A model generated the notes under the pieces. The model did not search any database, was not told the origin of the DNA, and saw nothing but the letters and a program-made list of their open reading frames with translations. From a virus: DNA of 42,718 nt. The position numbers were made by a program, and so were the translations under genes. The first letter of the stretch is position 1. The number at the start of each line of letters is the position of its first letter. Positions 7,296 to 36,617 of the stretch are shown piece after piece. Location of the stretch: UHGV virus genome UHGV-0332340, one strand, 5' to 3'.

Positions 7296-7362
7296 TTAAT
7301 TTGTTTTATTTTCTCTCTTACAAAATCTATTATAGCATATATTCCCTTACTTGTGTAGCTTG

Positions 7363-18186: not shown

Positions 18187-18348
18187 CTATCTATTATAAT
18201 TTGTTGCTTCCTTACAGTCAATAATTTTATAGTGTTTTTTGGGATATGTCAAGCGAAAGTCATCAATTGCAGCTCTCATTGTTTCAGCTAGATAGCTTAA
18301 TTGAATAGTTTGTGTGTGTCGTTTTGCTAGAATGATAAATGTGCTCAT
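18187..18348 (-). CDS. Hypothetical small protein (53 aa)
   Basis: RBS TAGGAGT followed by ATG. Fills the otherwise empty 18125-18360 gap. Confidence 0.25.
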   Translation of the reverse strand: MSTFIILAKRHTQTIQLSYLAETMRAAIDDFRLTYPKKHYKIIDCKEATNYNR

Positions 18349-21958: not shown

Positions 21959-22351
21959 ATGCCACAACGTAAGTGCGCAGTGGCTTCGTGTCGCGCGTAT
22001 GTCACGCTACCTGAGCGCTACTGTGACGCACATCAAGGGTACAACAATAGTCAATACAATAAGCATGTGAGATACAACGATGACAACAAGAAGTACAGTA
22101 ACTTCTATCATTCAACCCAATGGAGGAACGCACGTAAAGCCAAGCTAATGGAGCAACCACTATGCGAGGTATGCTTGGCACAAGGCAAGTACACCAACGC
22201 TAACATGGTTCACCATAAGATAGAATTAAGAAGTCCAAATGGATGGAAACATAGACTTGATTTAAATAACTTAGAATCAATCTGTTACGAGTGTCACAAC
22301 AAGGAAGAGCATAGCTATAGTTGGAAAAATAGAAGTAGGCAACAGCGCTAA
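21959..22351 (+). CDS. HNH endonuclease, terminase-associated (HK97 gp74-like)
   Basis: C-terminal HNH motif (MVHHKIELRS...NLESICYECHNKEEH) and an N-terminal Cys3His ribbon. It lies just upstream of the cos-like region and terS, as in HNH-dependent cos phages. Confidence 0.7.
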   Translation: MPQRKCAVASCRAYVTLPERYCDAHQGYNNSQYNKHVRYNDDNKKYSNFYHSTQWRNARKAKLMEQPLCEVCLAQGKYTNANMVHHKIELRSPNGWKHRLDLNNLESICYECHNKEEHSYSWKNRSRQQR

Positions 22352-22700
22352 ATCAACAACCGCACAGTCAAAATTATTTTTAGGGAGACCCAAAATGTTT
22401 TTACCCCCCTACCTTTTTATAACGAATTAATCGCTGCCCCCTCTTCTTCGCACGAAATTCTAAAAATGAAGTTTGAAAAACGTCCTTTTCCCCTCGTAAA
22501 CGTGATTTAAATCTGGTTTCTTGTGTTGAAAATAAAGGAGTCATACTATATATAGTATGTTATTTCGCTTATACGATTGTTCCCCCTATAAACAAGATTG
22601 AACCCTGGTTTCTTCACACAGGGTTCTTTATATATGATATAATAAAGCTATATAAGGGAGTTATCCGTTAACTCAAAAATAAAATAAGGGAGGTTACACA
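22352..22700 (+). promoter_or_regulatory. Non-coding packaging-site-like region (candidate cos/terS-binding repeats), terminator-like hairpin and late promoter
   Basis: About 350 bp without ORFs. Four C-tracts of the TTnCCCCCT type at 22404, 22437, 22490 and 22582. An 18-bp perfect palindrome at 22542-22559. Hairpin gaaccctg...cagggttc at 22600-22626. Promoter TGaTATAAT at 22635-22643. Confidence 0.4.
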
Positions 22701-22883
22701 ATGCCTGCACCAAAACCAGTGTATGTAAAAGATTTATCAACTGGGCAGACACGCAAATTCAAATCACAATTCGCAGCAGATGATTTTTATAATAAGAAGC
22801 GTGGCTACTTTAAGGACATTAAAACAAAATTAGGCGGACGCAATCGTCACTTTGAAATTACAGAAGCCCCAAAGGAGGATTAA
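22701..22883 (+). CDS. Hypothetical basic protein
   Basis: RBS AAGGGAGG, 60 aa. Confidence 0.4.
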   Translation: MPAPKPVYVKDLSTGQTRKFKSQFAADDFYNKKRGYFKDIKTKLGGRNRHFEITEAPKED

Positions 22884-22887
22884 ACAA

Positions 22888-23217
22888 ATGGCAGAACAAT
22901 GGAAGACAATTCCAGGATACCCCAATTATAAAGTTTCAACAATGGGGCGTGTATTAGCAACAGATGGAATAAAACAAACACAGGTTAAGCCGTATGAAAA
23001 AGATCATGGGTATCTATGTGTTGATTTGTATAAAAATGGGCAACGTACTGGAAAACGCGTTCACATATTGGTAGCAGAAGCGTTTCTTAGTGGTAAAAAA
23101 GAAGGATTCACGGTAGATCATAAAGACCGTAACAGACACAACAATAAGGTGTCAAATCTAATATGGTCTAGCGTATCAGACCAAAACAAAAATAGAACGT
23201 CATGGGCTAAGGAGTGA
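22888..23217 (+). CDS. HNH homing endonuclease (NUMOD4 + HNH_3)
   Basis: WKTIPGYPNYKVSTMGRV (NUMOD4), then VHILVAEAF...VDHKDRNRHNNKVSNL (HNH_3). RBS AAGGAGG before the ATG at 22888. Confidence 0.75.
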   Translation: MAEQWKTIPGYPNYKVSTMGRVLATDGIKQTQVKPYEKDHGYLCVDLYKNGQRTGKRVHILVAEAFLSGKKEGFTVDHKDRNRHNNKVSNLIWSSVSDQNKNRTSWAKE

Positions 23218-23221
23218 TAAA

Positions 23222-23686
23222 ATGGCAAGACCACGAAAATTATTAAACGCTCAGAGTGGTAACTTGACCACTCAGCAACGTGAGGAGCGTGAGAAGGAGG
23301 AAGAAGTACTTTATAACTATGAAAAACTAGACTTTAGTTTTTATCCACCAGGCTTATTACCACAAGCATTCAATGAATGGGATCGCATTGGAGCATATGT
23401 GGGCGATTTGCCTATTTCTGAATTAGATGTTAATACAGTTATTAGATACTGTAATTACAATTATTTATACGCAGAAGCAGTAGAGAAAGTAGCTCAGATG
23501 GGCGCAATTGACCCTGAGACAGGTAAAGCCAATCCATGGGTAAATGCTATGAACTCCTATTCAAAAGAGCTTAAAACGGCAACCAACGACTTAGGTTTAA
23601 CAATCAATTCAAGAATGAAAATTATTCTTCCAGCTGAGAAAGAGAAAGAAGTAATTGACCCATTTGCAAAAATGTTTGAGGGATAA
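23222..23686 (+). CDS. terS: Terminase small subunit (P27 family)
   Basis: MARPRKLL... N-terminus and ~150-aa size typical of the P27 family. Sits upstream of terL. Confidence 0.75.
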   Translation: MARPRKLLNAQSGNLTTQQREEREKEEEVLYNYEKLDFSFYPPGLLPQAFNEWDRIGAYVGDLPISELDVNTVIRYCNYNYLYAEAVEKVAQMGAIDPETGKANPWVNAMNSYSKELKTATNDLGLTINSRMKIILPAEKEKEVIDPFAKMFEG

Positions 23687-23719
23687 ACTACACAAAAATA
23701 AAACTTTGTGGTATAATAA

Positions 23720-24204
23720 ATATATAAATCGAACATTGGAGACACCAAAATATAGGTGATGTAGGAGTCATCTATATTGAACAGTTACCAGACCATTAGG
23801 GTGTATTACTATGGTTCACGCACCCTCTCCCCAGAGATGAGTCTTTGGGGATGTACATATTAGCTAGGTGGCATCTAATACACCTCTCGTGACACCGCAA
23901 GCGAGAGTATGCTAAAACGCTCTCTAATGAGTAGCCATGTGAGAGTTGGAAACCTTAGCTCACAGCGGTATATAGTGGTTCACCACACTCCACATTAAAA
24001 AGGGTTACTGTTTGGATATCAAAGGAACAGTCGTTTACGGCTAACGAAAAGACCGCAAGCCACAGTATCTGGCTATGGGTGTGGTAGTATAACCCTACTT
24101 GACGACTAACACACTGAAAGCGACCATACATTTGATGTAGGGGCGTGTATATTCGCAGATATTACAACATTCCACTAGTCTAGCTAACTAGTGGGTCTTT
24201 TTTT
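23720..24204 (+). ncRNA. Candidate large structured non-coding RNA between terS and terL
   Basis: No ORF >=60 aa in any frame across 23749-24247. Local GC is ~45% against ~35% for the genome. Extended -10 promoter TGGTATAAT at 23709-23717. Strong intrinsic terminator at 24172-24204 (ccactagt/actagtgg plus T7). Many local hairpins and repeated CTCTC/GAGAG and ACCGCAAGC motifs. Confidence 0.45.
24172..24204 (+). terminator. Intrinsic terminator ending the terS-terL intergenic transcript
   Basis: 8-bp stem ccactagt/actagtgg, 7-nt loop, then TCTTTTTTT. Confidence 0.7.
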
Positions 24205-24205
24205 A

Positions 24206-24214
24206 TGCTATAAT
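24206..24214 (+). promoter_or_regulatory. Extended -10 promoter (TGcTATAAT) for terL
   Basis: Lies immediately after the terminator, 25 nt before the RBS AAAGGAGG of terL. Overlaps the ATGCTA...TAGCAT inverted repeat. Confidence 0.5.
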
Positions 24215-24247
24215 ATAAGTGACTAGCATAAAAGGAGGAATACATAA

Positions 24248-26020
24248 ATGTTTGATCCAGTACAAGATTATATAGATTTAATTGAAAAAGGATATGTAGA
24301 AGGTAAAAAATACATTGTTGAAGATGGTAAATATAAGACCATTAAAGTGGATATTCGTGTAGGAACAAAAATTAAAAAGGCCATTGAACGTCATCAAAGA
24401 GAGGTAGAGTTGTCTAAACGACCAGATTATCCATATATTTATAGACCAGAAGAAGCAATTCCAGTTATTAAATTCATGGAGATGTTACCTGACCCAAAGA
24501 GTCGTAAACCACTGAAGTTAGCCACCTTCCAAAAATTCATTATTGGTTTACTATATGGTTGGCGCAAAAAGAGAGATAATACTAGACGTTTTAGAAAAGC
24601 CTATATCTCACTAGCACGTAAGAATGGTAAGTCTTTAATTGTAGCTGGCATTGCCTTATATGAGTTTTTATTTGGTAAGAATCCAGCAGCAAGCCGTCAA
24701 GTAGTAGCGGCAGCCAACACAAAAGAGCAAGCAGGAATCGTTTTCAGAATGCTAAAATCTCAATTAATGGCACTACGTAGCGTATCAAAAGAAGTGAAGA
24801 AAAGAACAACTGTTCGTAGATATGATATTGAAGCTAGTGATGAATCAACCGTTAAGCCACTATCAAGTGACGCAGACACACTAGATGGATTAGATGTTTT
24901 ATGCGGTATTTTAGATGAGTATGGTGAAGCTAAAGATACAAGTATTATTGAAGTATTAGAGTCATCACAAGCGCAACAAGTGGAAGGATTGATTCTAATG
25001 ATTTCCACAGCAACAAAGAATCTGAATGGGCCAATGTTTACTATAGATTACGCATTTGTTGAAAAGTTACTGAATGACGAAGTTAAAGCAGACGCCTATC
25101 TTGCATTATGTTGGGAGATGGATAGTCTATCAGAAGTTGATGATGAGGCGAACTGGATCAAGGCAAACCCTTTACTAGAAATACCAGAAGCTTATGAATC
25201 AATGATGGAACACAAGCGCAACTCACTTGACGAGTATAAAGGTAAAATGGATTTATCAGGTTGGCTTACAAAAGAAGAAAATTTTTGGGTACAATCATCT
25301 AAAGATAGTTTTGTAACCAAAGAGGAATGGGACGCAGTGAAAGCACCTACTAATTATAATATTAGAGGTAGAAAAGTATATATTGGTATTGACTTAGCTA
25401 GAACATCAGACATGACAGCTGTTTCATGGATTATTCCAATAGAAGAAGAACACAAGCTATTACTAGATACACATGGGTTTGTATCATCAGTAGGAGGCAT
25501 TGACCATAAACAGTCAATTGATAAAATACCATATAGGCAGTATGAGTCAATGAACCTAATTCATATATCGCAACGTGAGGATGGTCTGATAGATAGTGAA
25601 GAGATGTGTGATTGGATACGTGACTTCATAGACTATAATGACTTACAATTGGTAGGTATTTATTATGACCCATTTATGATGGACAAGGCTTTGATTAATC
25701 TAAGTAAAACCTATCCCAAAAAACTAATTGAAGTACCACAGAAAATCAACTATTTATCTTCACCAACAAGAGCCTTGCGTGAGTTAATTCGCAGAGGTGA
25801 AGTAATGCACACCAATAATCCTTTATTGAATCGTGCGGCATACAATGCCATGATTAAAGAGTACAACGACAGCGTTGCTATTGATAAGCAAATAAACAGG
25901 AATAAAATTGACTCACTTGACGCCATAATAAATGCGATGAGTGACGCTCAATATCATGATTATGACGCTCCAACATTGCAAGATTTACTAGATAATGGTG
26001 AGTTTGGCTTTGGTTACTAG
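24248..26020 (+). CDS. terL: Terminase large subunit (Terminase_1 family)
   Basis: N-terminal ATPase (Walker A-like ISLARKNGKS), C-terminal nuclease, 590 aa. An intrinsic terminator follows at 26034-26060. Confidence 0.85.
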   Translation: MFDPVQDYIDLIEKGYVEGKKYIVEDGKYKTIKVDIRVGTKIKKAIERHQREVELSKRPDYPYIYRPEEAIPVIKFMEMLPDPKSRKPLKLATFQKFIIGLLYGWRKKRDNTRRFRKAYISLARKNGKSLIVAGIALYEFLFGKNPAASRQVVAAANTKEQAGIVFRMLKSQLMALRSVSKEVKKRTTVRRYDIEASDESTVKPLSSDADTLDGLDVLCGILDEYGEAKDTSIIEVLESSQAQQVEGLILMISTATKNLNGPMFTIDYAFVEKLLNDEVKADAYLALCWEMDSLSEVDDEANWIKANPLLEIPEAYESMMEHKRNSLDEYKGKMDLSGWLTKEENFWVQSSKDSFVTKEEWDAVKAPTNYNIRGRKVYIGIDLARTSDMTAVSWIIPIEEEHKLLLDTHGFVSSVGGIDHKQSIDKIPYRQYESMNLIHISQREDGLIDSEEMCDWIRDFIDYNDLQLVGIYYDPFMMDKALINLSKTYPKKLIEVPQKINYLSSPTRALRELIRRGEVMHTNNPLLNRAAYNAMIKEYNDSVAIDKQINRNKIDSLDAIINAMSDAQYHDYDAPTLQDLLDNGEFGFGY

Positions 26021-32006: not shown

Positions 32007-32236
32007 GTTGGGACGAACATCTTGACGCAATGGATAAGATGTACACTGACCTTTTATCCAGTGAGTCTGGGACATGGTCTCTATCAGAAATTAACAACGC
32101 TGACTATAATTTACTAATGGAGTTGTTTACAAAAGATAATAAACCTAAAAAAGAAAAACTACAAGACCCAATAGATTTCTTTGGTACATTTATGAGTCCG
32201 CAAGATATGGCAAAAGTAAAAGGTGAGACACTTTAG
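31677..32236 (+). CDS. Tail assembly chaperone G-T fusion via -1 programmed frameshift
   Basis: Canonical slippery heptamer A_AAA_AAG at 31976-31982. The -1 frame continues through the 32030-32236 ORF to just before the tape measure gene. Confidence 0.65.
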
Positions 32237-32303
32237 CACACCGCTAGAGTGTCTCTTTTTATGTTATAATAGATTAAGAAAGCAACCAAAAGGAGTGAAC
32301 TTG

Positions 32304-35300
32304 ATGGCACAAGATAGACCTATAGGAAATATGAAATTTGGGGTTGGATTTGATGGTTTAGATGAGTCTTTAAATACATTAGATAAGTTAAATAGAGCAA
32401 TTAAACAGACAGAATCAGCAATGAAAACCAATATATCTACAATGGATAAAGGTAATAAAACCGCCTCTGATTATGCACGTGCAGAAGCAGATTTAACGAG
32501 AGCATATGAATTACAAGCTAAAAAAATTGCATTACTAGAAAAAAGAAAAGAAGAACAAATCAAAGCACATGGTGCTGAATCAGCAGCAGTTGCTAGAACA
32601 GTTGACCAAATTAACAAAGCCTCAACAAAATACAATCAGTATAATAAAGAGATTGATAAAAACAAACAGGCACATATAATCGCTTCAAGTGGTGTAGATA
32701 AATATAGTAAGGCTATCAAAAACAATGAATCAGCCATGAAAGATGAAATTAGTGCATTACGTAGTGCTGGCGATAAGGTAGGAGCATATAAAGCACAAAA
32801 ACAAGGGTTACTGAAACAAGAAGAATTAACAACAAAAGCAATTAAAGCTCAGGAAAACGTAGTAAAACAAATGACCAAGCAATTTGGTGAAAACTCAACA
32901 CAAGTTGCTAGTGCTAAAGAAAAACTAGAAACCTTTAAGCGACAACAACAAATAACAAGTAAGCAGATAGAAGGAACAAACAAAGGACTGAAGGAGTCAT
33001 CTAATGCTTTTCGTGGGTTAAATGATGAAATGTCCAAATCTGAACCAGCTTCTAAAAAGGCAGTAAATGGCTTAGGAAAAGTAACCTCTGGTTTAGGAAC
33101 TATGTTAGGTGGAATTGGTAAAGTTGTAGGCAAGGTTGGACTTGGTGCTTTACTAACTATTGGTAACAAAGCGTTTAATGCCGTTTCATCAAATGTTGAT
33201 TCCGCGATTAAACGTATTGATACCTTGGCAAACTCATCAAGATCATTTCAAAACATGGGCTTTGACGCAGAAAAAACAGCGAGAGCCATGAAAAACATTT
33301 CTAAAGCAATTGAAGGATTACCAACGGCTTTAGATGACTCTGTATCCAACGTACAACTATTAGCAGCATCAACAGGAGATTTAGATTTATCTGTAGATGT
33401 TTATAAGGCATTAAATGACGCAATACTTGGTTTTGGTGGAGACGCAAACATGGCAAATAATGCTATTGTTCAGTTATCCCAATCCTTCTCTAATGGTAAA
33501 GTAGACGCGCAAACATGGAACTCTATGATAAACTCAGGACTTGGCCCAACATTAAATGCCCTAGCAAAACAAATGGGCATAACTACTGGCGAGTTGAAAA
33601 ATGGTCTTTCAGAAGGTAAAATCTCAGTTAAAGACTTTCAAGAAGGATTAATTAAACTTGACAAAGAAGGTGGTGGCGGTCTTAAGTCATTAGAACAGAT
33701 TGCCAAAGACTCTACAAAAGGTATTAGCACCTCACTAGCAAATGCTAAAACGGCTATGGTACGTGGAACTGCTGAACTTATTAAAAGCGTAGATGAAATG
33801 CTTAAAAATATGAATCTACCAACAATCAGTGAGTTTATTACAAATGCAGGAACAAACATGGAAAACTTCATGAAAAAAGTTGCTGCTGTACTACCTGAAA
33901 TTGCAAAACACTTCGCATGGGTTGGAGATGTATTTGATGGAATCAAAGAAATCTTTGCAAATGTCATGGATGAGGTGGACGCCTTTATTTTCAACTTCAA
34001 GAATGGTTTCACGCAAATGGTAGAATTTGTTAAAAACGTGTGGAATGGTGATGTACAAAGTAATGACTACTATCTACTTAGATTAGCAGGACTTGATTAC
34101 GAAACAATTTGGAAAATAGAAGACTTCATAAAAATATTTAAAGAAAAAGCAGAAACATTTGGGGCTTATGTACAAGGGTTCTGGAAACTATTTTCTAAAG
34201 ATGAAGCAACATCACTAGATGGATATTCAATGCTTAGAACACTGGGCATGACAGAAGATCAGATTACAGGTCTAGAAACAGCGGTAGAAAACGTTAAGAC
34301 GTTTCTAAGTGACTTAAAAGATGTGGTACTAGATTTGGCAGACATAGCACTGTATAACTTAAACCAAGAGTTTGATACTCTTTATAAGTTTTTCACAGAA
34401 GAGGTAGCGCCAGACTTGCTTCCAATTATACAATCATGGACAGAGAGCTTTCAACGTATGAGCACTATATTTAAAGACACAGGGGATAGTGCTAATGGCT
34501 TGAAAACAGTTATTGTTGTAGCGTGGAAAATAATGGAAGATAGATTCCAAGGATTGTGGATTATTGTTAAAACAATAATGACTGCTATTCAGATTACGAT
34601 TGAAACAGTGACAGTTGCAATTGCTGGAATACTAAACACATTTGGTCTTGTTATCACAGGTCAATGGAGTAGCGCGTGGGAAGAAATTAAGAAAACTGGA
34701 GAACGTATCTGGGCAGCCATCTGGGGTGGAATTAAAGATACATTCTTAGGAAAAATTCTGACAGCATTGGGCACTTTCTACACAGAGAATAAGAAAATAT
34801 TTGACGGTATTTGGGAAACAATTACAGGCATACTATTTGCTGTACCAGGGTTTGTGTTTGACATCTTCACGAAAGTACCTCAGCGAATGGCAGAAGCCAT
34901 TAAAGGAGGTAAAAGCGCAGTAGTGGCAGCCTTTAAAGGTGTTTTCAATGCAGCACTTAAAGCGATTGGGAAACCAGTAAATGGGATCATCAAAGGTGCG
35001 TCATGGGTGCTTGAAAAATTAGGTGCAGAACCTCTAAAAGAATGGGAAGTACCACAATACGCTACAGGTACACCAGCAGGCGGACACCCAATTAATGGGC
35101 CAATGATGGTCAATGATGGACGTGGAGCAGAAACAGTTATCACACCAGATGGTAGAGCATTCATCCCTAAAGGACGCAACGTTGTATTAAACGCACCAAA
35201 AGGAACGCATGTCTTGACAGCTGAAGAAACAGCACAGCTTCAAGGTTCAAAAGCCCCTAAGTACCGTTACAAAAAGGGTACTAACTTCTTTGGTAACATG

Positions 35301-36617
35301 TGGGACAGTGTGAAAAATATTGCTGGTAATGTAGGAAACACACTTAAAAACGTAGTAGGTGACGTGTGGGACTTCATTTCAGACCCTGGCGCATTAGCCA
35401 GAAAAGTACTGGGTGGCTTAGATGTATTAGGTGGCTTAACCAAATACCCATTAGAGGTAGGTAAAGGTATTCTATCTAAAGCAACAAGCGCACTAACTGA
35501 AAAAATCACTGGCCTGTTTTCATCTGGTAACTTAGATACATCCATAGGAACAAATGGCGTTTATAAATACTTAGCAGATGTTGCTAAGTCTGTAATGAAG
35601 AAATTCCCAGGATTTATGGTAACATCAGGGTATCGTGAAGGAGATCAATATTCACATGGTAAACGTAATGCCATTGATATTGCCCTACCAGGTGTCACAG
35701 GTGGCTCGCCACGATACACAGAAGCGGCCAACTATGCTTTTGATAAATTTGCGTCTAAGATTGGTTACGTAATCACTAATGGTAAAGTTCGTGACCGTTC
35801 AGGACAATCAGGTACAGGCATTCATAATGATTGGAGACCATGGCCAGCTGGAGACCACTACGACCACGTGCACTTAAACGGTATAAAAGACCCACAAAAC
35901 ACTCAAATCTCAGGTGATAGCGTGGGAGGTAGTGGTGTTGAAAGATGGCGAAACGTAGCAATTAGAGCATTGAAAATGACTGGTCAATACAGTGCTGCAA
36001 ACTTAAACGCCTTACTAAATCAAATGCGTACGGAGTCAAATGGTAATCCTAAAGCGATTAACTTGTGGGATCCAAACGCTATGAAGGGTACACCATCAAA
36101 AGGTTTAATGCAAGTGATTGACCCAACATTCAGACAGTATGCAATGCCTGGATTCAATAGTAATATCTATGACCCACTAAGTAATATTCTAGCTTCTATC
36201 AAGTATGCCCTTGCAACATACGGTTCATTAACAAATGCTTATCGTGGAGTTGGTTATGAAAACGGTGGAATTATCACAAAAGAACACATTGCAAGAGTTG
36301 GAGAAGGTAATAAGGAAGAAGTAGTTATTCCACTAACTGGCTCTGGGTTAAAACGTTCAAGAGCTATGCAACTATTAGCATATGCCAATGAGAAGCTTAA
36401 CCGTAACCAGTCAGCACCAGTATCTGGAACTACTTCAAGTACGAACTCTGATATGGCCCAAATGCTTCTATTGTTACAACAGCAGAATGAGTTATTGATG
36501 GCGATTTTAGCTAAAGACACTAATGTAGTACTAGACGGTGAGAAGTTAAATAGCAAACTACAAAAGATTCAATCAAGGAATCAATTAAATGCTAATCGTG
36601 ATTTGGGATTAGTTTAG
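32304..36617 (+). CDS. Tape measure protein with C-terminal peptidase-M15-like and lytic transglycosylase (SLT) domains
   Basis: RBS AAAGGAG before the ATG at 32304. The N-terminal half is a long coiled coil and the middle is hydrophobic. SHGKRNAIDIA...DHYDHVHL gives an M15/VanY-type zinc site. ESNGNP...GLMQV gives an SLT catalytic motif. Confidence 0.8.
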   Translation: MAQDRPIGNMKFGVGFDGLDESLNTLDKLNRAIKQTESAMKTNISTMDKGNKTASDYARAEADLTRAYELQAKKIALLEKRKEEQIKAHGAESAAVARTVDQINKASTKYNQYNKEIDKNKQAHIIASSGVDKYSKAIKNNESAMKDEISALRSAGDKVGAYKAQKQGLLKQEELTTKAIKAQENVVKQMTKQFGENSTQVASAKEKLETFKRQQQITSKQIEGTNKGLKESSNAFRGLNDEMSKSEPASKKAVNGLGKVTSGLGTMLGGIGKVVGKVGLGALLTIGNKAFNAVSSNVDSAIKRIDTLANSSRSFQNMGFDAEKTARAMKNISKAIEGLPTALDDSVSNVQLLAASTGDLDLSVDVYKALNDAILGFGGDANMANNAIVQLSQSFSNGKVDAQTWNSMINSGLGPTLNALAKQMGITTGELKNGLSEGKISVKDFQEGLIKLDKEGGGGLKSLEQIAKDSTKGISTSLANAKTAMVRGTAELIKSVDEMLKNMNLPTISEFITNAGTNMENFMKKVAAVLPEIAKHFAWVGDVFDGIKEIFANVMDEVDAFIFNFKNGFTQMVEFVKNVWNGDVQSNDYYLLRLAGLDYETIWKIEDFIKIFKEKAETFGAYVQGFWKLFSKDEATSLDGYSMLRTLGMTEDQITGLETAVENVKTFLSDLKDVVLDLADIALYNLNQEFDTLYKFFTEEVAPDLLPIIQSWTESFQRMSTIFKDTGDSANGLKTVIVVAWKIMEDRFQGLWIIVKTIMTAIQITIETVTVAIAGILNTFGLVITGQWSSAWEEIKKTGERIWAAIWGGIKDTFLGKILTALGTFYTENKKIFDGIWETITGILFAVPGFVFDIFTKVPQRMAEAIKGGKSAVVAAFKGVFNAALKAIGKPVNGIIKGASWVLEKLGAEPLKEWEVPQYATGTPAGGHPINGPMMVNDGRGAETVITPDGRAFIPKGRNVVLNAPKGTHVLTAEETAQLQGSKAPKYRYKKGTNFFGNMWDSVKNIAGNVGNTLKNVVGDVWDFISDPGALARKVLGGLDVLGGLTKYPLEVGKGILSKATSALTEKITGLFSSGNLDTSIGTNGVYKYLADVAKSVMKKFPGFMVTSGYREGDQYSHGKRNAIDIALPGVTGGSPRYTEAANYAFDKFASKIGYVITNGKVRDRSGQSGTGIHNDWRPWPAGDHYDHVHLNGIKDPQNTQISGDSVGGSGVERWRNVAIRALKMTGQYSAANLNALLNQMRTESNGNPKAINLWDPNAMKGTPSKGLMQVIDPTFRQYAMPGFNSNIYDPLSNILASIKYALATYGSLTNAYRGVGYENGGIITKEHIARVGEGNKEEVVIPLTGSGLKRSRAMQLLAYANEKLNRNQSAPVSGTTSSTNSDMAQMLLLLQQQNELLMAILAKDTNVVLDGEKLNSKLQKIQSRNQLNANRDLGLV

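Follow-up and report, generated by a model that had tools for sequence, protein, structure and literature searches.

Our studies of UHGV-0332340, the complete genome (~42.7 kb) of a virulent Enterococcus siphophage whose full 42,718 nt are called the window here, focused on the gap between terS and terL, the genes for the small and large terminase subunits. An initial annotation had proposed that this gap is separately transcribed and encodes a large structured non-coding RNA (ncRNA). The terS stop codon ends at 23686 and the terL ATG begins at 24248, which leaves 561 nt (560 had been given), and no open reading frame (ORF) of 60 amino acids (aa) or more was found, as had been stated; the longest in any frame has 58 aa and lies on the minus strand. 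The claimed GC enrichment held, but the figure of 45-48% was slightly high. Positions 23790-24170 have a GC content of 44.9% versus 35.7% genome-wide, in the top 0.6% of windows (+2.6 standard deviations), and the entire gap has 40.3%. The sole other stretch that matches the locus in GC (~45-46%) is 34800-35200, which falls within a 1464-aa ORF (32223-36617), probably the tape measure gene.

The gap carries its own transcription signals (Table 1). The extended -10 promoter described initially (P1, TGGTATAAT) is indeed present, with TACACA upstream across a 17-nt spacer; the final bases of this spacer supply the TG of the extended -10, and P1 returned 10/12 matches, with TG, in a consensus scan. 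A terminator scan recovered the intrinsic terminator that had been called textbook, and directly 3' of it lie a second promoter (P2, TGCTATAAT) and the terL ribosome-binding site (RBS). P1, the terminator and P2 are kept in all relatives fetched (10 GenBank phages and 17 IMG/VR contigs, with EF36P1 and KEN18 added later; their loci are cited below by L numbers). The terminator loop, CUAGCUA, is invariant, and its stem covaries in relatives (CCCACTAG, CTCACTAG and CTCCCTAG). From the positions of promoter and terminator, we predict that transcription starts near 23724 and that the primary transcript is non-coding, ~481 nt long and spans 23724-24204 on the plus strand. A transcriptome of this phage group was not found in the literature.

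Similar signals occur elsewhere in the window, where late genes lie on the plus strand and early genes on the minus strand. The motif TGNTATAAT is present 16 times against 4.0 expected; its plus-strand sites adjoin late-gene starts, and most have a 'CACA' box ~15 nt upstream, like P1. This box, (A/C)CACA(A/G), is non-standard and is shared by promoters of the phage ~15 nt before an extended -10, TGnTATAAT (for example at 582, 10362, 20949, 22635, 23709, 28023, 30963 and 31632 on the plus strand and at 7337 on the minus strand). Promoters of a second class lack the box and come directly after the T-run of a terminator (24206, 32262, 36650 and 39877). Since these four sites directly follow terminators, the pairing of terminator and promoter is normal punctuation. 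The layout reported upstream of terL thus stands, but it is generic to the late region and not special to this locus.

Most relatives match the 77-nt piece that runs from the terminator through P2 to the RBS (24171-24247) at 89-99% identity, which exceeds the conservation of terS or terL (72-95%, with terL falling to 72-79%). A perfect 10-bp inverted repeat spans the P2 -10 box (24201-24210 with 24224-24233), and possible roles of the piece include those of a recombination arm, an operator and a homing target. In Aramis (L008, 1760-1884), ~60 bp comprising the distal (3') half of the terminator together with P2 and the RBS are duplicated in tandem immediately upstream of terL, which may be genuine or may result from assembly or annotation.

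The strongest evidence for a structured RNA comes from Domain 2, or the 'H core', the commonest module. Of the 30 clade loci, 27 contain it, and the terminator follows 8-10 nt after its end. Five helices were proposed by eye on an alignment (A1) of 25 distinct sequences. Standard pairs filled 92.6% of cells, versus 22-55% when the partners were slid by 1-3 columns, and 13 of 35 pairs showed double-sided changes, versus 1-3 in the slid controls. The covariation score was equalled by none of 500 shuffles, and RNAalifold, which was blind to the proposed helices, predicted hairpins Hh1, c and b. The kissing helix between the loops of c and b reads CCCUCU/AGAGGG in a second sequence type. The pseudoknot between the Hh1 loop and the 3' tail varies only from A-U to G-U, which is compatible with the pairing and stops short of proof by covariation. 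An H-core covariance model (R1) scored 113.7 bits at the locus; it found no second copy in the window and no homologues near terL genes of ~40% identity. A weak match (18187-18322, minus strand; 11.8 bits, E ~0.06) is probably noise; it falls in an early-region intergenic stretch that is rich in strong sigma-70-type promoters.

Domain 1 gave a comparable picture, with 93.8% of paired cells standard versus 31-45% in slid controls. Covariation within type 1a is modest, as four pairs change in essentially two haplotypes. The pseudoknot sites read UUCCUC/GAGGAA in L003 and L005 and ACCUCA/UGAGGU in L024, and since different sequences keep the same pairing, this is good evidence for the pseudoknot. 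The 15-nt loop of hairpin E, AGUUGGAAACCUUAG, is nearly invariant, with a single A-to-G change in one copy, and its stem exists in three versions (GUGAG/CUCAC, UGACGG/CCGUCA and UAGGAG/CUCCUA). An E-loop 17-mer searched alone also matched unrelated coding sequences, which we judged to be chance. The initial annotation had described a chain of mutually exclusive stems across 23884-23945; these resolve as three sequential hairpins rather than alternatives, namely h2 (CTCTCG/CGAGAG), h3 (GCTCTC-TAAT-GAG(T)AGC) and the stem of hairpin E. The repeat ACCGCAAGC does occur twice, at 23894 and 24052.

The accessory hairpins also appear to be kept as RNA structures. Three hairpins named initially, GGGTG/CACCC (23799-23825), CCCCAGAG/CTTTGGGG (23829-23850) and CTCTCG/CGAGAG (23884-23907), are present, and the alignment, as judged by inspection, points to covariation of all three in relatives. 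The first hairpin of module C, for example, reads GAGTG/CACTC in L003 and L005, and the second reads CCTACA/TGTAGG in L001, L002 and L006. Module B shows a compensatory change in relatives from GUGA..UCAU to GUAA..UUAU; it is found in 7 of 30 clade loci, never together with the abiF-like module X described below. Modules F and G (16/30 and 20/30 clade loci) were aligned and found to be conserved in relatives by inspection, outside the formal covariation count, and the CGUU/AACG hairpin at 24032-24046 is a diverged copy of the G module of relatives.

The transcript folds with a z-score of -3.33 on the plus strand versus -2.46 on the minus strand, and paired cells hold 38 G-U against 9 A-C combinations. 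The excess of G-U over A-C indicates that the RNA is read from the plus strand, in agreement with the promoter and terminator. Compensatory changes keep many helices across lineages, which argues for selection on RNA structure. Taken together, the conservation and covariation found across related phages, the G-U asymmetry, the lack of a conserved ORF and the unit's own promoter and terminator agree with the initial proposal of an ORF-free, separately transcribed unit encoding a structured RNA and with the features generally expected of such a gene. Most of the features that had been listed were located as reported or 1-2 nt away. Based on this comparative analysis, it is very likely that the gap is an independent transcription unit consisting of P1, a structured plus-strand ncRNA of ~480 nt and a terminator, and that the RNA comprises at least two pseudoknotted domains and accessory hairpins.

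Table 1. Features at and around the terS-terL gap, in window coordinates.
Feature	Coordinates	Strand	Details
HNH gene	21959-22351		upstream of terS
NUMOD4/HNH_3 homing endonuclease gene	22852-23217		between 60-aa ORF and terS
terS	23222-23686	+	Terminase_4
Promoter P1	23689-23717	+	-35-like TACACA 23689-23694; extended -10 TGGTATAAT 23709-23717
Module B	23749-23778	+	hairpin AAUAUAGGUGA/UCAUCUAUAUU, loop UGUAGGAG; first module after P1 (inverted repeat I1)
Module C	23799-23850	+	GGGUG..CACCC 23799-23825; CCCCAGAG..CUUUGGGG 23829-23850
Domain 1 (type 1a)	23865-23971	+	five elements
Domain 1 helix	23869-23874 with 23909-23914	+	UGGCAU/AUGCUA
Domain 1 hairpin h2	23884-23907	+	CUCUCG/CGAGAG
Domain 1 hairpin h3	23919-23935	+
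Domain 1 hairpin E	23939-23963	+	GUGAG/CUCAC; loop AGUUGGAAACCUUAG 23944-23958
Domain 1 pseudoknot	23894-23898 with 23965-23969	+	h2 loop ACCGC/tail GCGGU
Modules F and G	23975-24046	+	GUGG-UUCA-CCAC 23975-23986; A-rich linker; ACUGUU/AACAGU 24007-24031; CGUU/AACG 24032-24046
Domain 2 (H core)	24037-24162	+	five helices, commonest module
Hairpin Hh1	24058-24074	+
Hairpin c	24078-24083 with 24110-24115	+
Hairpin b	24120-24131 with 24145-24156	+
Loop-loop kissing helix c-b	24093-24098 with 24137-24142	+	6 bp, CCCUAC/GUAGGG
Domain 2 pseudoknot	24065-24069 with 24158-24162	+	Hh1 loop GUAUC/3' tail GAUAU
Intrinsic terminator	24171-24204	+	9-bp stem CCACUAGU...ACUAGUGG; stem-loop 24171-24195, then U7
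Right slot boundary	24201-24247	+	P2, inverted repeat, terL RBS
Promoter P2	24206-24214	+	TGCTATAAT
terL RBS	24232-24238	+	AAGGAGG
terL	24248-26020	+	TerL_ATPase and TerL_nuclease

A blastn search with the gap returned at least 22 phage records, all from Enterococcus phages. Their hosts are E. faecium, E. faecalis and E. gallinarum, with the cheese isolate vB_EhiS_268 in addition, and members of the clade include IME-EFm1, IME-EFm5, 9184, Aramis and dArtagnan. The gap measures 173-1927 nt across relatives, and in database records it is unannotated or occupied by 'hypothetical proteins' of 30 aa. The expectation of structured RNA was right, but that of one large RNA with a fixed architecture was not, as the gap holds a shuffled mosaic of modules between conserved ends. 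Across the 30 clade loci, the presence or absence of modules, the window's own included, differs from phage to phage. The window has B, C, Domain 1a, E, F, a diverged G and H; Aramis has B, G, H and I; and IME-EFm5 has a second promoter copy, F, G and H. In KEN21 (L004) the core and terminator form a tandem duplicate, L027 carries three E hairpins and two cores, also a tandem duplication, with a likely methyltransferase ORF separating P1 from these modules, and L023 has only ~90 nt of RNA. The flanks align in full (terS at 72-95% and the 5' end of terL at 72-94% nucleotide identity), whereas relatives cover only 0-81% of the window RNA. Conserved arms around variable cargo would explain the mosaic. 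In all likelihood, the slot is bounded by P1 on the left and by the terminator, P2 and RBS on the right, and its contents are exchanged by recombination within this clade of virulent Enterococcus siphophages.

Protein-coding genes also enter the slot. In L027 (IMGVR_UViG_3300029751_000004, 573-2501), a 339-aa ORF stands between P1 and ~800 nt of RNA modules. It is probably a DNA methyltransferase, given a DPPY motif in its translation, and since it lies under P1 it would be co-transcribed with the RNA modules. Between the terminator and terL, a gene for an HNH homing endonuclease of 177-179 aa is present in L010 (2059-2598), L013 and L026, and an 86-aa ORF is present in L020, L024 and EF36P1 (L130, 1744-2004). 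Each of these inserted genes has its own promoter, and the 86-aa ORF also has its own terminator. Recombination at the slot is demonstrated by K38.2, a phage evolved by Appelmans host-range training that grows on a strain refractory to the whole cocktail (PMC11210271). K38.2 consists of Aramis with two dArtagnan segments, the terS-terL intergenic region and the Dit/Tal/RBP region (PMC11210271); selection on the slot is only hinted at by this recombinant.

An analogous slot exists in Efquatrovirus. In its E. faecalis phages, among them IME196, RioGrande and SHEF4, terS is followed by a promoter, several hundred non-coding nt, a terminator, TGCTATAAT and terL, and a blastn search with the RioGrande gap returned 107 records. 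These units measure 380-510 nt (L132, 630-1007, in IME196; L133, 1511-2020, in RioGrande) and are probably another unannotated structured RNA. They share no modules with the window clade except the first, module X, and the GC-rich modules that follow this abiF hairpin have no Rfam match. Exact and degenerate patterns for the H core matched only the same clade in viral contigs (14-15) and in metagenomes (5), and nothing in a set of bacteria with one genome per species, where the Domain 1 pattern also gave 0 matches. In ~60 viral contigs with a TerL of ~40% identity, terS and terL abut or overlap, which indicates that the gap is restricted to this clade. As judged from these searches, the distribution is narrow, with one unclassified genus-level clade and the analogous slot in Efquatrovirus.

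Insertions, homing endonuclease genes among them, are concentrated at the slot, and its conserved flanking arms would favour cassette exchange whatever the function. Its contents could then be selfish or neutral cargo left by recombination or mobile elements, including a DNA element (cos, pac or ori) or a decayed gene, but we consider this highly improbable. The covariation means selection on structure, which largely refutes such a reading, and the promoter and terminator are kept everywhere. A protein-coding or decayed gene was rejected on several grounds. The core alignment contains single-nucleotide indels between sequence types, which would break a reading frame; the 58-aa ORF has no Pfam match, and no ORF of constant frame or length is kept in the relatives. 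Further, tblastn showed no similarity of the gap to the ORFs that relatives carry as inserts (methyltransferase, HNH and 86-aa), and no relative carries a gene in place of the RNA, which disposes of the pseudogene that the initial annotation had named as a possible refutation.

The cohesive-end (cos) site also lies elsewhere. Upstream of terL, the order is the HNH gene, a non-coding stretch, a 60-aa ORF, the NUMOD4/HNH_3 gene and terS. The records of Aramis and IME-EFm1 start at the same nucleotide, equivalent to ~22441 in the window, and that of 9184 starts nearby. These starts place the cos region 1.25 kb upstream of the RNA, and the RNA locus was therefore ruled out as a cos or pac site. 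Two 35-nt direct repeats, TTCCCCTCGTAAACGTGATTTAAATCTGGTTTCTT and a 77% copy, lie 92 nt apart at 22488-22614, downstream of the HNH gene and upstream of the promoter of the terS operon (22635), and look like terminase-binding (cosB-type) sites. A 9-nt cohesive end reported for IME-EFm5, TCATCACCG, is absent from the window and was uninformative. The NUMOD4/HNH_3 gene is missing in 9184, IME-EFm5 and SSBHU, where the 60-aa ORF abuts terS, and other relatives carry a different HNH gene at this site, making it a second insertion hot spot directly 5' of terS.

The initial annotation had also raised a link to packaging. An RNA that serves the packaging motor as a cofactor, regulates it or scaffolds it, by binding to TerS, TerL, the HNH protein or the portal, would suit a position strictly between terS and terL in two phage genera, and hairpins with invariant loops, such as E, would suit protein binding or loop-loop multimerisation. 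There is a precedent in phage 80alpha, where the correct form of a 400-nt structured RNA at the terS-terL boundary needs TerS and mutation lowers fitness (PMC10686824). However, every module is dispensable, and the content of the slot does not track the sequence type of terS and terL; L023 has almost no RNA, and the relatives with a TerL of 40% identity have none. The phage has a complete HNH-cos-TerS-TerL system with cos well away from the RNA, and Rfam gave no packaging RNA (pRNA) match. With terL under its own promoter and other cargo genes in the slot, the link to packaging found no support, and we regard such a role as distinctly unlikely.

Regulation of terminase expression in cis is slightly more probable, and we still hold it to be unlikely. 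The RNA could be a leader or attenuator, riboswitch-like or protein-dependent, that sets read-through into terL, or it could serve the terS mRNA as a stabilising 3' untranslated region. No terminator separates terS from P1, so a terS mRNA initiated at the 22635 promoter should continue across the RNA as far as 24204. The H core, the most conserved module, is aptamer-like and always directly upstream of the terminator, and the predicted pairing of its 3' tail with an upstream loop is a typical switching arrangement. In relatives with module I, the CCCACU/AGUGG repeats beside the terminator form a 1:2/2:3/3:4 pattern. In addition, Fremin et al. 2023 list 14 unnamed RNA candidates upstream of large terminase genes, which may or may not include this RNA (PMC10690425). 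Against this, terL has its own conserved promoter and RBS after the terminator, like other late genes, and in L010, L013, L026, L020, L024 and EF36P1 the terminator and terL are kept apart by genes with their own promoters. L004 has two tandem copies of the RNA-terminator unit, and inspection of the window revealed no conserved antiterminator pairing. Finally, the RNA content changes freely while terS and terL stay, and L023 manages with ~90 nt.

A unit with its own promoter and terminator and with conserved single-stranded loops might also produce a base-pairing small RNA (sRNA), or a precursor of several, directed at host or phage mRNAs. The A-rich linkers ('AAACG') found repeatedly where modules meet might be sites of processing. 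However, no target stood out among 48 translation-initiation regions of the phage, where the best duplex had -37.4 kcal/mol versus -34.4 +/- 2.9 kcal/mol for shuffled RNA, and the complement of the E loop is absent from the window. The conserved nucleotides lie in elaborate pseudoknotted folds, which are more typical of RNAs that bind proteins or ligands. A base-pairing role is therefore quite improbable.

With the aim of placing the RNA in a known family, we ran cmscan against Rfam 15 on the whole window at the gathering score, on 23600-24300 at E<=10 and on seven relatives at E<=1. Nothing was found in the window or in the seven relatives at these thresholds, whether ROOL or GOLLD, to neither of which the block could initially be assigned by eye, or group I/II introns, raiA or pRNA. 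Across the window and nine relatives, the only matches were sub-threshold abiF in relatives and junk (fluoride, PVX_3, caiA and NsiR1). ROOL (RF03087) and GOLLD (RF01998) were rejected, as there is neither a covariance-model match nor a neighbouring tRNA; ARAGORN found no tRNA, and likewise no transfer-messenger RNA, in the window. A phi29-type pRNA (RF00044) was rejected for want of an Rfam match. Type III antitoxin arrays (ToxI, CptI, TenpI and antiQ, with tandem repeats of 34-36 nt) were also rejected, since 23600-24300 holds only two-copy repeats of at most 17 nt. Domains 1 and 2 are new RNA families, with no Rfam model and no description found in the literature.

A candidate family could be named for one module of the relatives. 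Module X, with the abiF core GCCUCUUAACAAUGCG and a covarying outer stem, is the first slot module in RioGrande, IME196, dArtagnan, KEN21 and vB_EhiS_268, and it is shortened in L023. The abiF motif is a hairpin with outer and inner stems of 6 and 3 bp, respectively, and a conserved loop, CUCU(C/U)AAC(G/A)AU. In RioGrande (L133, 1541-1576), RF03085 scored 31.1 bits (E = 0.0011 in 541 nt) against a gathering score of 37, and L006 gave a partial match of 19.9 bits, also below that score. Viral contigs were scanned for the core 16-mer GCCTCTTAAYAATGCG, which yielded at least 120 loci (L134-L253). Among the matches listed, the outer stem had at least 6 bp in 84 of 107 distinct flank pairs, versus ~21% when flanks were re-paired between loci, and the Enterococcus copies of X have 8-bp outer stems of differing sequence. 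Outer stems so far above the re-paired controls, together with the covarying 8-bp stems, suggest that module X is a genuine abiF-type hairpin despite its sub-threshold scores. In the window itself, no abiF motif (RF03085) was found at E<=10 and the core 16-mer is absent. A stretch of Domain 1 (23881-23916), CCUCUC-[19-nt hairpin]-(U)AUGCUAAAAC, loosely resembles the abiF core CCUCUCAACGAUGCUCAAAUC with a hairpin in its loop, which may be chance.

[quoted passage not shown] AbiD/F is regarded as one of the type III toxin-antitoxin families (PMC13064643). In the phages, the motif is an orphan; the next gene is terL, and no AbiF gene was found beside the copies. Among the matches listed, 2 of 64 distinct first genes downstream of the 16-mer encode Abi_2 and 5 of 64 encode large terminases, with capsid, portal, lysin and other genes making up the remainder. 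The window proteome contains no Abi_2 and no PADLOC defence protein. Hairpins of the abiF type are common in viral contigs from many environments and are mostly orphans. This suggests a general use of AbiF antitoxin RNA by phages, for which no confirmed function was found in the literature. In the lactococcal phage sk1, AbiF is inhibited by a cos-region hairpin that does not look like the ncRNA (PMC13064643, citing Rince 2000 and Zilberzwige-Tal 2025).

As a whole, these observations are best explained by a structured-RNA unit in a shuffled slot that would serve counter-defence, an explanation that we favour with slightly less than even confidence. The slot would make abundant trans-acting structured RNAs. 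These would bind host proteins as RNA decoys or pseudo-antitoxins and so blunt RNA-dependent abortive-infection or toxin-antitoxin defences. Three lines of reasoning lead to this proposal, in decreasing order of strength. First, the promoter of terL, the intervening genes and the duplicable units suggest that the RNA acts in trans and not on terL. Second, the modules are optional and shuffled and the neighbouring genes are stable, which suggests an accessory RNA under diversifying pressure. Third, counter-defence is suggested by the orphan antitoxin-type cassette, by the apparent methyltransferase under the same promoter and by the swap of the slot in a host-range recombinant. That the window's own slot makes trans-acting counter-defence RNAs is argued from guilt by association, and we put it forward tentatively because of several points that weigh against it.

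The window lacks the abiF motif, and the case for its own modules is one of position and behaviour; even in relatives, the abiF match is below the Rfam gathering score. If Domains 1 and 2 mimic host antitoxin RNAs, homologues beside bacterial toxin genes would be expected, yet the exact-pattern scans of one genome per species found none for either domain; the patterns were strict, which makes this a weak negative. A short blastn search of plasmids for the abiF motif found none in Enterococcus and demonstrated no host AbiF partner; it returned only uninformative matches from Legionella, the Bacillus group and the like. The unit sits in the late, structural gene block, and genes for counter-defence tend to be early. 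K38.2 represents one swap only, which may have been carried along neutrally, and the H core directly before the terminator also fits the riboswitch-like reading.

A broader form of the counter-defence proposal is a multivalent locus of exchangeable cassettes driven by a single strong promoter, each cassette a decoy or pseudo-antitoxin for a different RNA-binding abortive-infection or toxin-antitoxin effector of the host, in which the abiF hairpin would be the first to be decoded and swaps would change host range. Domains 1 and 2 would then be inhibitors of defence systems with RNA components that are still to be identified. We consider this broader form rather doubtful. There is firm evidence that the RNA exists. 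Its cassette layout and the link to abiF were unexpected and are testable, and the function given here for the window's own modules is a proposal.

The locus has been ignored by phage annotation, although it holds several pseudoknotted RNA domains under selection, none of them in Rfam; the sole paper that we found to mention it terms it a 'small intergenic region'. These phages are therapy candidates against vancomycin-resistant E. faecium, and in the one laboratory recombinant on record with a new host, precisely this region has been swapped. If counter-defence is correct, the RNAs would be host-range determinants overlooked by protein-centred analyses and a natural example of cassette-style evolution of RNA inhibitors, and their partners would point to RNA-dependent defence systems in enterococci. 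The orphan viral abiF hairpins make a general 'phage pseudo-antitoxin' hypothesis directly testable.

Several known systems resemble parts of this locus. In the 'promoter-early stem-loop' (PeSL) cassettes of T4-type phages, reportedly described by Arbiol and colleagues in 2010, a conserved promoter and stem-loop flank variable cargo and act as recombination arms for the shuffling of modules. The PeSL cargo consists of protein-coding ORFs in early regions, whereas structured RNA modules between late packaging genes are exchanged here. The pseudo-ToxI of phage PhiTE is reportedly a phage RNA that inhibits a type III toxin. Like pseudo-ToxI and the sk1 hairpin, the window RNA may be a phage-borne RNA that neutralises an RNA-binding abortive-infection toxin. 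In contrast to ToxI-type antitoxins, which are short tandem repeats, the window RNA has no such repeats. The pRNA of phi29 is another structured phage RNA, with loop-loop contacts as proposed here, and it serves packaging. However, phi29-like phages lack TerS and have protein-primed DNA, whereas the window phage has a full HNH-cos-TerS-TerL system and dispensable modules.

ROOL and GOLLD are likewise large (~0.5 kb), GC-enriched, multi-domain ncRNAs of Lactobacillales phages and prophages, but they have a fixed architecture and are usually found near tRNAs, whereas the window locus is a mosaic of optional modules in the packaging operon (PMC12286853). In staphylococcal phages, the CBASS-activating bacteriophage RNA (cabRNA; CBASS, cyclic oligonucleotide-based antiphage signalling system) is likewise a discrete structured RNA of ~400 nt at the terS-terL boundary and is sensed by the CBASS cyclase (PMC10686824). 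It is made from coding sequence inside terS/terL, with no promoter or terminator of its own noted, and it triggers defence rather than blocking it (PMC10686824). The window RNA is a dedicated non-coding gene and has no sequence similarity to cabRNA. The sk1 element also adjoins packaging genes and is unlike the cognate antitoxin (PMC13064643). Finally, in the loci of the abiF RNA (RF03085) and RCd22, the type III antitoxin of AbiF/Abi_2, the downstream gene is Abi_2/HEPN or, in other type III loci, a ToxN/AbiQ toxin, whereas it is terL in the window, and Domains 1 and 2 are much larger, pseudoknotted and unrelated in sequence. Nevertheless, the abiF locus and the window share the same layout, with a strong promoter, a structured RNA (a short one in abiF), a terminator and the next gene (PMC12373285).

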